From contig OZ242296.1 in assembly GCA_965207735.1 (NCBI GenBank), positions 2,944,001-3,008,000 on the forward strand: a stretch of DNA of 64,000 bases. Reading direction: 5' to 3'. How positions within the stretch are numbered: position 1 is the stretch's first letter; every line of letters starts with the position of its first letter. Below the pieces are notes generated by a model. The model saw nothing but the letters and a program-made list of their open reading frames with translations, was not told where the DNA came from and ran no database searches. A program made the translations under genes and the position numbers. Origin of the DNA: Candidatus Versatilivorator sp. Lineage in GTDB: Bacteria > Acidobacteriota > Terriglobia > Versatilivoradales > Versatilivoraceae. Below, one piece after another: positions 56,782 through 57,650 of the stretch.

Positions 56782-57650
56782 GTAGAGTCGAGGACTGGCG
56801 CGTTGACTATAGGGTCCGGTGGCTATTCCGTCGCTTTCGCTTCGGGCCTCAGTCCGGCTCCCTTATCACGTTTCCAGTCCCCGCTCTCCGAACCGGACGT
56901 GCGGTTTTCCCGCATCTCGGCTCTCCAGTGGGATCATGCGTCTCGCACACAGGTCCCCGCTCGCATCCGTGGACGACTCCTATGGGATTGGCACCCGTCC
57001 CCCACTCCATCCACTTCCGCTCCCGGGTTGCCGCCAGGCCTGTTGATGCCCTGACGACGCCGTCCTCCTCCGACGACCCTTTCACTTTTGCATGTGATGC
57101 TTCCGGAGTCTCCGGCCCTTTTTTGGTCGGGGTTTCAGGCTTTCGCCACTCCCGGGACCCTTCCCCCTTCGGTCACCGCTCCTCACCTGAGGCCCCTTCC
57201 CTCCACCGGTATTACCCGGCTTCTCCGGTACTACAGGCCTCTCCGCCACCCTGTCGGCCTAGACTGACTCTCGCGAGCTTCCGGTTCGGTGCGTGCCTCA
57301 CCACCCACAGGGCTTCCCATGTTGCTGCCTTCTTCCCCTTCCATGCGTGCCAGCGCCACTACCCCGGCGGGTCCAAAGGGGTGCCCGCGTCGCTCGCTTC
57401 CCCCTCCGTCTTCGGCCTTCCCCATTTCTCAGGTGGGTCGGCCCCCGCATTGCCCGTTTCGAGGCCTGCTCGACGTTCACTCGCGTTCCGGCCCGCATGC
57501 TCGCTGAACCGCCTTAAGCGGCCCTTTGACACCAGAGGGCTTCAGACCATATCGTTACCTCCATGATCCGCCCTGGCTGCTACCAACCGGAGCGACAGTT
57601 GTTGGACGGGTTTCGCACCCGTTGGAAGAAGGCGCCTTTCCATGGCGCAC
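56782..57650 (-). ncRNA. ORF-less group II intron (IIB-like ribozyme)
   Basis: Minus strand starts GUGCG and ends ...CUCGACUCUAC; domain V AGAGCCGAGAUGCGGGAAAACCGCACGUCCGGUUC (56890-56924); domain III-like GUAGUACCGGAGAAGCCGGGUAAUACCGGUGGAGGGAAGGGGCC (within 57191-57239); precise insertion without TSD; no RT ORF. Confidence 0.93.

Follow-up and report, generated by a model that had tools for sequence, protein, structure and literature searches.

A non-autonomous group II intron in the terminal inverted repeats of IS1380 and its MITEs in Candidatus Versatilivorator, with domains that appear to be exchanged with RT-encoding introns

The terminal inverted repeats (TIRs) of IS1380 elements and of their MITEs in a Candidatus Versatilivorator genome have been found to harbour a group II intron devoid of any open reading frame, one copy of which lies in the window studied here (the whole stretch of 64,000 nucleotides that was analysed). 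Taken together, the evidence makes it probable that this gene-less intron, whose exon-binding sites (EBS) fit the IS1380/MITE end-repeat, splices and is copied by means of a reverse transcriptase (RT) borrowed from sister introns, and that it has been gaining targets through recombination in which domains I-II are taken over. Comparison with relatives indicates that the ORF-less introns are mosaics, with domains I-II tracking the target and the 3' half tracking the distinction between ORF-less and RT-encoding forms. Copy number, MITE hosts, a replication-strand bias and the exchange of domain I with RT introns had all been missed in the initial annotation of this DNA.

Judged by its sequence and predicted fold, the 869-nt element at 56782-57650 (minus strand) is an ORF-less group II intron with a IIE/IIF-type structure. 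Its borders are those initially annotated, nt 13 of the TIR being followed by GUGCG at the 5' end and CUCUAC at the 3' end by CCAGAG; the TIR is split after base 13 without duplication, in line with the claimed lack of an intron TSD, and zero minus-strand ORFs of at least 100 aa occur inside the intron, which bears out the claim that no RT ORF is present. The ends fit the group II 5' GUGYG / 3' AY rule, and the two Rfam models proposed as a check both score above their gathering thresholds on the minus strand, group-II-D1D4-4 at 57481-57624 (80.8 bits, cut-off 49) and Intron_gpII at 56782-56925 (41.2 bits, cut-off 40). The AGC triad and AC bulge ascribed to domain V are both there, along with a 5-nt loop and one additional bulged A in the lower stem that had gone unmentioned, and a bulged A at 56788 lies 7 nt before the intron's 3' end. 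An RNAalifold consensus of 8 family members comprises domains I-VI, with two-sided change in 50 of 248 predicted pairs, the 8 sequences being related and these changes non-independent events. The single-strand fold of the whole intron has a z of -4.09 against 20 shuffles, and predicted folds disagree over the DId3 region, where an additional bulge loop is a IIE/IIF feature. Two vestiges of an intron-encoded protein (IEP) have been detected in domain IV: the 'EASHAKVK' stretch, already suspected as such and now placed at 57080-57103, can be aligned to the N-terminus of the IEP that the RT sisters encode, and the other corresponds to the old stop codon region (56932-56939). The parts of the intron and of its host are collected in Table 1.

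Table 1. Features of the intron and of its IS1380 host, in coordinates of the window
Feature	Position	Strand	Remarks
ORF-less group II intron, 869 nt	56782..57650	-	Rfam, fold, genome copies
Outer 13 nt of IS1380 left TIR, forming the 5' exon	57651..57663	-	IBS1 (-6..-1) and most of IBS2 (-14..-10)
Domain I, targeting module	57317..57645	-	95% to same-target RT sister, 88% to other-target types
Alpha loop, predicted	57590..57595	-	Complementary to alpha'
EBS2, predicted	57452..57456	-	Read by eye; differs by target between intron types
EBS1 UGAGAA	57426..57431	-	Pairs with IBS1 UUCUCA
Alpha', terminal hairpin loop	57390..57395	-	IIE/IIF trait
EBS3 (G)	57359	-	Pairs with first base of 3' exon, C at 56781
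Domains II and III	57189..57313	-	Crossovers with RT introns map here
Domain IV, without ORF	56929..57187	-	IEP vestiges; segment conserved throughout ORF-less family
Domain V	56890..56923	-	AGC triad 56920-56922, AC bulge, 5-nt loop, extra bulged A
Domain VI, long	56784..56888	-	Bulged branch-point A 56788
Start of 3' exon, inner 6 nt of 19-nt IS1380 TIR	56776..56781	-	
Extended -10-like motif TGGTAAAAT upstream of transposase, putative	56742..56750	-	Absent from promoter-scan output
IS1380-family transposase, 455 aa, intact	55332..56699	-	NF033539
Right TIR of host IS1380, intact	55097..55115	+	TSD CTAA 55093-55096
Left TSD copy CTAA of host IS	57664..57667	-	
IS1380 copy without intron, empty site	32938..34635	+	97% identical

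The host is a 1698-bp IS1380 with 19-nt TIRs and the 4-nt TSD CTAA on both sides, and its transposase matches NF033539 with 410.6 bits (cut-off 180), which assigns the element to the IS1380 family. The intact transposase ORF and the -10-like motif described upstream of it are both present in the sequence, the function of the motif being putative. The second IS1380 of the window, which had served for comparison, does display the empty site; it is a variant of the host rather than an identical counterpart. In the same way, the insertion is exact within the TIR as first described, and is no isolated event, being one of 28 copies in the genome with the majority in MITE ends. A promoter scan returned no minus-strand promoter able to transcribe the window copy, and the TauD-like gene upstream of it lies on the opposite strand; for these two reasons this particular copy is probably no donor. 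Elsewhere in the window, three matches to Acido-Lenti-1 RNA exceed the gathering score (21584-21629, 27010-27055 and 46487-46532).

Throughout the genome of 5.26 Mb (G000), the 28 intron copies share 99.6-100% identity, 22 being identical, and all are located directly after the 13-nt TIR motif (27 exact, one with one mismatch). They occupy two IS left ends, four IS right ends, 20 MITE-type ends and two lone sites, so that both ends of IS and MITE are represented; the MITE host at these 20 ends is about 243 bp long or a deletion form thereof. Matching TSDs are still found at 20 of 25 hosts. One ORF-less type C copy and one 117-nt deletion form are present in addition, and the genome holds 15 RT-encoding introns against the 28 ORF-less copies. 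These counts bear on the significance initially attached to the insertion, namely that it makes the IS an immobile transposase donor. The division of the 19-nt TIR into 13 + 6 nt agrees with such a role, as does the untouched state of the transposase ORF and the -10-like motif. Nonetheless, among 20 near-identical IS1380 copies both TIRs are kept in 14, one is interrupted in six and both in none; 19 transposase matches are identical at 100% in protein; and 20 of the 28 introns sit in non-coding MITE-type ends that lack a transposase gene. An immobile donor as the main point of the insertion is thus very unlikely. The remaining part of that account, a non-autonomous group II ribozyme homing into transposon ends, is supported by the sequence comparisons, RT-encoding sisters being present.

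All three exon-binding sites, EBS1, EBS2 and EBS3, are complementary to the TIR around position 13, where 28 of 28 copies lie. Over 43 distinct combinations of EBS1 and flank from relatives, EBS1 and IBS1 form six of six pairs in 33 cases, five in eight, four in one and a single pair in one, the last being a head-to-tail tandem; the total of 243 pairs compares with a maximum of 201 in 2000 shuffles. The coordination-loop base (EBS3) and exon position +1 are Watson-Crick partners in 54 of 64 scored introns (five more were unscorable). Upstream of the EBS1 stem lies a 5-nt segment that changes along with exon positions -17..-8 and has been taken, by eye, as EBS2; it corresponds to nt 195-199 of the intron, which change with the target, unlike the loop-like GCAUGCGGGC segment, an earlier EBS2 candidate that was dropped, being nearly invariant across targets and paired within domain I. 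At L120 (G011) and L178/L212 (G042) intron copies lie in head-to-tail tandem, an arrangement also reported for RmInt2.

The distribution of occupied sites is biased with respect to replication. A set of 203 TIR-like sites was compiled, allowing at most one mismatch and requiring CC or the intron to follow. With origin and terminus set by GC skew alone (irregular at 2.8-4.5 Mb, the window copy lying inside this weak-skew zone), the inferred lagging-strand template carries 23 of 29 occupied sites versus 70 of 174 empty ones (Fisher p 1e-4). Local-skew definitions of the favoured strand give 22-24 of 29, and in clear-skew regions the inferred lagging template accounts for 18/21 occupied versus 37/107 empty sites. 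A search for oriC through DnaA-box clusters revealed no clear cluster in the genome. Between 2.8 and 4.5 Mb the cumulative GC skew of G000 is jagged and the replichores are unbalanced, which suggests recent inversions, possibly repeat-mediated. A lagging-template bias is what would be expected for endonuclease-free retrohoming, and the same bias is described for RmInt1 and RmInt2 (PMC4615759).

A different origin of the copies has to be weighed here, in which the intron moved by transposition together with its IS or MITE, as a single DNA unit, following one or a few homing events. Such passengers would account for the MITE pair without any difference in host, end or intron (C1:5027609, 5213353), for the six of 29 occupied sites on the unfavoured strand, and for the intact state of the TSD and of the TIR's outer 13 nt. 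Yet four kinds of end are occupied, the strand bias is confined to occupied sites, the 19 intron-bearing MITEs represent 18 distinct host haplotypes intermixed with empty MITEs, and two intron SNPs are each common to different hosts or ends. Separate retrohoming events are favoured over passenger transposition because of the strand bias, the 18 haplotypes and the SNPs that cross host types. Passenger transposition is improbable as the general route, and a minor contribution has room in the one identical pair and the six off-strand copies.

Several further observations concern the occupied ends and their surroundings. At L091 (G011:C1:2784311-2786258) each of the two TIRs of a MITE carries an ORF-less intron, and the two introns point towards one another. 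Intron scars have been found at G000:C1:572757 and C1:331225, of two types: a MITE end where nothing but the opening 6-7 bases of the intron is left, and a lone TIR with the first 19 behind it; they likely arose from loss by microhomology deletion. An element of about 1.59 kb, labelled IS1182-like on a partial protein (201 bits, under the cut-off of 270), adjoins an IS1380/MITE TIR in 11 of about 13 cases, with the same end in every copy that was checked (for example C1:677210, 838670, 1212816, 3947349, 4620949, 5027595 and 5074255 in G000), and seven of these TIRs bear the intron. Favoured-strand TIRs beside this element are occupied in 6/6 cases versus 15/43 elsewhere (Fisher p 0.004, post hoc), and a putative outward promoter of the element might aid homing.

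The search for an RT-encoding sister that had been advised at the outset revealed 15 RT introns of about 1995 nt each in the genome, with the ORF uninterrupted in 14. Type A is a single intron that shares the target of the ORF-less family, in a diverged IS1380 left end; type B comprises 13 near-identical copies in a dispersed repeat, one of them frameshifted; and type C is a single intron in another repeat. The type A IEP (452 aa) possesses RVT_1 and GIIM domains and a YADD motif, lacks an endonuclease domain, and is about 83% identical to those of types B and C (377/452 and 375/455 aligned positions). Sister IEP identities amount to 45% with Ni.ha.I1 (g3), 34% with B.th.I3 (g2) and 29% with Sr.me.I2 (g1), which, together with the intron structure, points to IIE/IIF and, as a candidate placement, to class F in a comparison that comprised g1, g2 and g3 references. 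At L046 and L047, the other two RT matches in the genome, tblastn with the IEP gave no match. Since the same-target RT intron is single-copy, against 28 ORF-less copies, and its A-type counterparts are truncated or interrupted in G011 and interrupted in both copies of G009, the helper may be another type. None of the compared RT introns has a domain IV cognate to the ORF-less one, and recognition across the two is an assumption, the ORF-less DIII-DIVa being only 65-77% identical to the compared RT introns.

With regard to the other targets, the sequence flanking the host IS1380 of the window (57664-57700 and 55030-55096) belongs to a dispersed repeat whose core motif has 208 occurrences, and the IS is inserted exactly where type B RT introns enter this repeat (compare L139, C1:409328), so that repeat, IS and intron are nested three deep at this locus. 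The window also contains an IS1634-family element (NF033559, about 40650-42720), whose TIRs are 13 nt long and whose target duplications are of a similar YTAR kind. A fourth RT intron type, present in G005, G008, G009 and G011, homes at the inner edge of the IS1634-family TIR; at none of the 24 IS1634-family TIR sites in G000 was a match to an intron start found in the genome.

The mosaic structure is apparent from identities within the genome. ORF-less introns of types A and C are 98.7% identical over DV-VI and just 88.6% over domain I, and their domain I resembles that of the RT intron with their own target at 95.2% and 98.2%, respectively. Three same-genome pairs of ORF-less and RT introns share 98.2-99.4% of domain I and 65-77% from DIII on. 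Matches were present in 13/13 same-genus genomes, with full-length ORF-less copies in at least 5 of the 13 among the best 12 candidates per genome, and trees were built from 46 distinct complete introns of the genus (23 ORF-less and 23 RT), with truncated, interrupted and duplicate sequences excluded. Over nt 1-410 (domains I-II) these 46 introns group by target, and over the next 95 nt and DV-VI the ORF-less introns are split from the RT introns with supports of 100/100 and 100/99. For AU tests on groups named beforehand, though after a five-sequence alignment had been viewed, ORF-less monophyly is rejected over the first segment (p-AU 7e-49) and target-A monophyly over the two 3' segments (2e-9 and 4e-13).

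Shared targets could also have been reached by convergent point mutations of the EBS, and divergence of this kind is the mechanism described for the TeI families (PMC2882425). That the pattern arose in this way, in place of recombination, is extremely unlikely: dozens of diagnostic sites outside the EBS, between nt 8 and 400, track target type and then switch abruptly, domain I identity within pairs reaches 98-99%, and the AU tests agree with this, so that tract-wide identity already contradicts convergence. Among six trios, diagnostic sites place the switch points at about nt 331-343, 388-411 and 444-462, some being patchy, and since these points differ among trios the exchange happened repeatedly. 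The A-type RT ORFs of three genomes form their own clade (100/100), the one line of evidence on direction, which suggests RT introns as the donors and ORF-less introns as the recipients of domain I.

The manner of exchange has been considered as well. Some copies show patchy tracts, most have matching TSDs, and exchange has also affected the DVI of L119, of L297 and of the alphaproteobacterial RT introns, all of which would suit real mosaics made by RT template switching between co-expressed intron RNAs, or by gene conversion, instead of reciprocal crossover. One RT intron speaks for crossover: in L105 (G009) the 5' exon is an IS1634-family TIR and the 3' exon the inner part of an IS1380 left end, and close to nt 1400 the intron changes from D-like to A-like, with exons of two IS families joined across a single switch point. 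It is likely the product expected of crossover between copies at two loci, and as a single locus it could be a misassembly. In addition, a one-way RT switch would hardly produce, at a matched site, an intron whose 5' half is RT-type and whose 3' end is ORF-less. Template switching or gene conversion is therefore considered unlikely to be the main route, while retaining an appreciable chance. Crossovers with flank shuffling appear uncommon among present copies, given that 20/25 hosts keep matching TSDs.

A more trivial cause would be collapsed repeats in metagenome assemblies, which might be suspected from the named records with the intron family being MAGs and from frameshifts and gaps in some alphaproteobacterial copies. 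The pattern recurs in six genus genomes and one alphaproteobacterial genome, and the EBS of multi-copy families fits their own flanks, which leaves an assembly artefact with hardly any probability as the source of the mosaics.

Taking these data into account, homing followed by domain capture is the preferred reading. The intron would be spliced from a host read-through transcript with an IEP given in trans, and the resulting RNP would reverse-splice into the TIR strand exposed as lagging-strand template. Because the sister IEPs lack an endonuclease domain, cDNA synthesis would be primed by the nascent strand, and the TIR target would offer one site per strand per element. That host promoters drive transcription, that a trans-acting IEP assists in splicing and that the fork is the place of reverse splicing are carried over from established group II biology (PMC12584367); splicing and mobility of the present intron are predicted from sequence. 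The phylogenetic pattern, in which ORF-less domains I-II track same-target RT introns and the part from domain IV onward appears private to the ORF-less family, would follow from a crossover between an ORF-less and an RT intron at different loci, in conserved DII/DIII. Such an event would provide the ORF-less 3' half with a new domain I that already fits its 5' exon, and the hybrid could splice, home to the new target and begin a new homing wave. As a side effect the TIR would be split in the DNA, with no evident selected benefit. The extra bulged A of domain V may count against this reading.

ORF-less introns of this kind occur beyond the genus. Scanning genome_contigs for the DV-DVI motif yielded 37 loci, 30 from Ca. 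Versatilivorator, Versatilivoraceae or Terriglobia and seven from two Alphaproteobacteria MAGs; the latter seven are ORF-less, colinear, 68-77% identical over the full length and at other targets. One of the alphaproteobacterial genomes also has related RT introns, one of which shares its target with ORF-less introns, and there the two forms share domain I (100/99). A single locus in metagenome_contigs is ORF-less with the same domain IV layout and an RT-type DVI, and RT introns with an ORF-less-type DVI occur as well; since DVI is thus swapped both ways, domain IV is the constant part. In a DIVa tree all 12 ORF-less rows fall together (96/94; alternative p-AU 0.38), and similarity of the domain IV interior across phyla is borderline, with scores of 28 and 33 versus null maxima of 27 and 33. 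A single ORF loss across phyla is favoured by these comparisons, short of being established. No RT-encoding parent with an ORF-less domain IV was found at the seven alphaproteobacterial loci and the metagenome locus, and scores for the DIV interior as pieces of an RT ORF were within the null. The combination of TSD, 13-nt TIR and intron start was detected in 9/300 other genomes of the phylum (five single matches in the reversed control), a pattern that presupposes the geometry and shows existence, not prevalence. From 25 loci examined in this way, 10 had an IEP match of 52-70% identity, the remainder being fragments or contig ends, and several of the 10 had a partner TIR about 150 nt beyond the intron or an IS1380 transposase. 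In G041, alphaproteobacterial ORF-less copies (L161, L165, L167, L194 and L195) split a multi-copy protein gene at one conserved site; splicing would matter for the expression of this gene, which we take to be an AAA-ATPase gene.

RNA data have been considered in the same context. In 5/5 RNA runs from three studies, contigs cover the intron, including the domain IV specific to ORF-less forms; these contigs derive from relatives rather than demonstrably from this organism, and contigs are uninformative on strand, level or splicing. Where an organism label could be read, in two runs, it was that of a sponge metagenome. Spliced, lariat and circle junctions were absent among the matches listed for the five runs (contigs of relatives), a neutral outcome, as the empty TIR exists as DNA. 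In X15-X17, X19 and X20 the intron had a summed contig depth far exceeding those of the transposase and the TauD-like gene, with about 80,000 versus 20-200 in X19, and in run X1, of unrecorded type, the values were similar (241 for the intron versus about 160); summed contig depth is a poor expression measure, here from contigs of relatives, and serves as a lead only. A wider interpretation, to which slightly less than even confidence is given, is that of a long-lived, horizontally travelling non-autonomous lineage with a structured, ORF-free domain IV, which would have lost its ORF once, crossed between Acidobacteriota and Alphaproteobacteria, captured the targeting domain of resident RT introns in each host and outcompeted the RT intron in copies, and which is perhaps an abundant cellular RNA, a ribozyme counterpart of a SINE.

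Among known systems, RmInt2 of Sinorhizobium meliloti GR4 offers a close parallel: in PMC4615759 it is described as endonuclease-minus, homing into both inverted repeats of ISRm17 with a lagging-template bias, and its authors argue for 'one site per strand'. It differs in being of class D with its own IEP and seven copies (PMC4615759), whereas here an ORF-less form of IIE/IIF-like structure dominates with 28 copies, hosted by IS1380 and, for the most part, by its MITEs. The present intron would hence be RmInt2-like in its working without being a member, as it carries no class D IEP of its own. In TeI3 of Thermosynechococcus elongatus (PMC2882425), ORF-less introns outnumber RT introns and keep N- and C-terminal ORF remnants, 'driver' IEPs act in trans and families have different targets; the absence of an ORF, the ORF remnants, the many identical copies and the RT relatives in the genome are all found here, and action in trans is predicted. 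TeI3 arose by deletion in a co-resident intron, is 85-100% identical to it and was retargeted by EBS mutation in parallel to the RT introns (PMC2882425); here the 3' half is about 65-77% identical to the local RT introns compared, with values of 65-74% for three RT types of this genome, and forms a separate clade, contrary to an origin by deletion from a co-resident RT intron, and the whole of domains I-II is exchanged. Class F or IIE-IIF introns such as Ni.ha.I1 (g3) share alpha' in a terminal loop, a 5-nt DV loop and, with the sister IEP, the absence of an En domain (PMC3552965 and PMC3753933), the window intron differing by having no ORF and a far longer DVI. In the Ll.LtrB relaxase chimeras (PMC7947834) and TeI4f/4g (PMC2882425), crossover between intron copies joins unrelated exons, as it probably does here; the text available on these cases deals with chimeras of host genes or flanks, and domain capture as a way for a non-autonomous intron to gain a new target is not described there. 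IStron, a group I intron fused to an IS, was rejected as a relative, being another ribozyme with another architecture.

Homing into TIRs (RmInt2), hitch-hiking of ORF-less forms (TeI3) and recombination between intron copies are thus known already. No literature on the acquisition of new targets by an ORF-less lineage through domain capture, or on IS1380 ends as sites of group II introns, was found in a search of mostly open-access papers. What appears to be new is ORF-less introns as mosaics with target-tracking domains I-II. In the consulted part of a review source (PMC4424553), bacterial group II introns lacking an ORF are considered rare, tied to a close RT intron and short-lived; in contrast, the ORF-less form described here is the more numerous, is present in at least 5/13 other genus genomes and apparently renews its targets by domain exchange in place of point mutation. 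If confirmed, this would constitute a natural route to intron retargeting, with domains I-II as a portable module, and would make it possible to test whether a promiscuous maturase can serve a divergent domain IV, as is often postulated on the path to a common splicing machinery.
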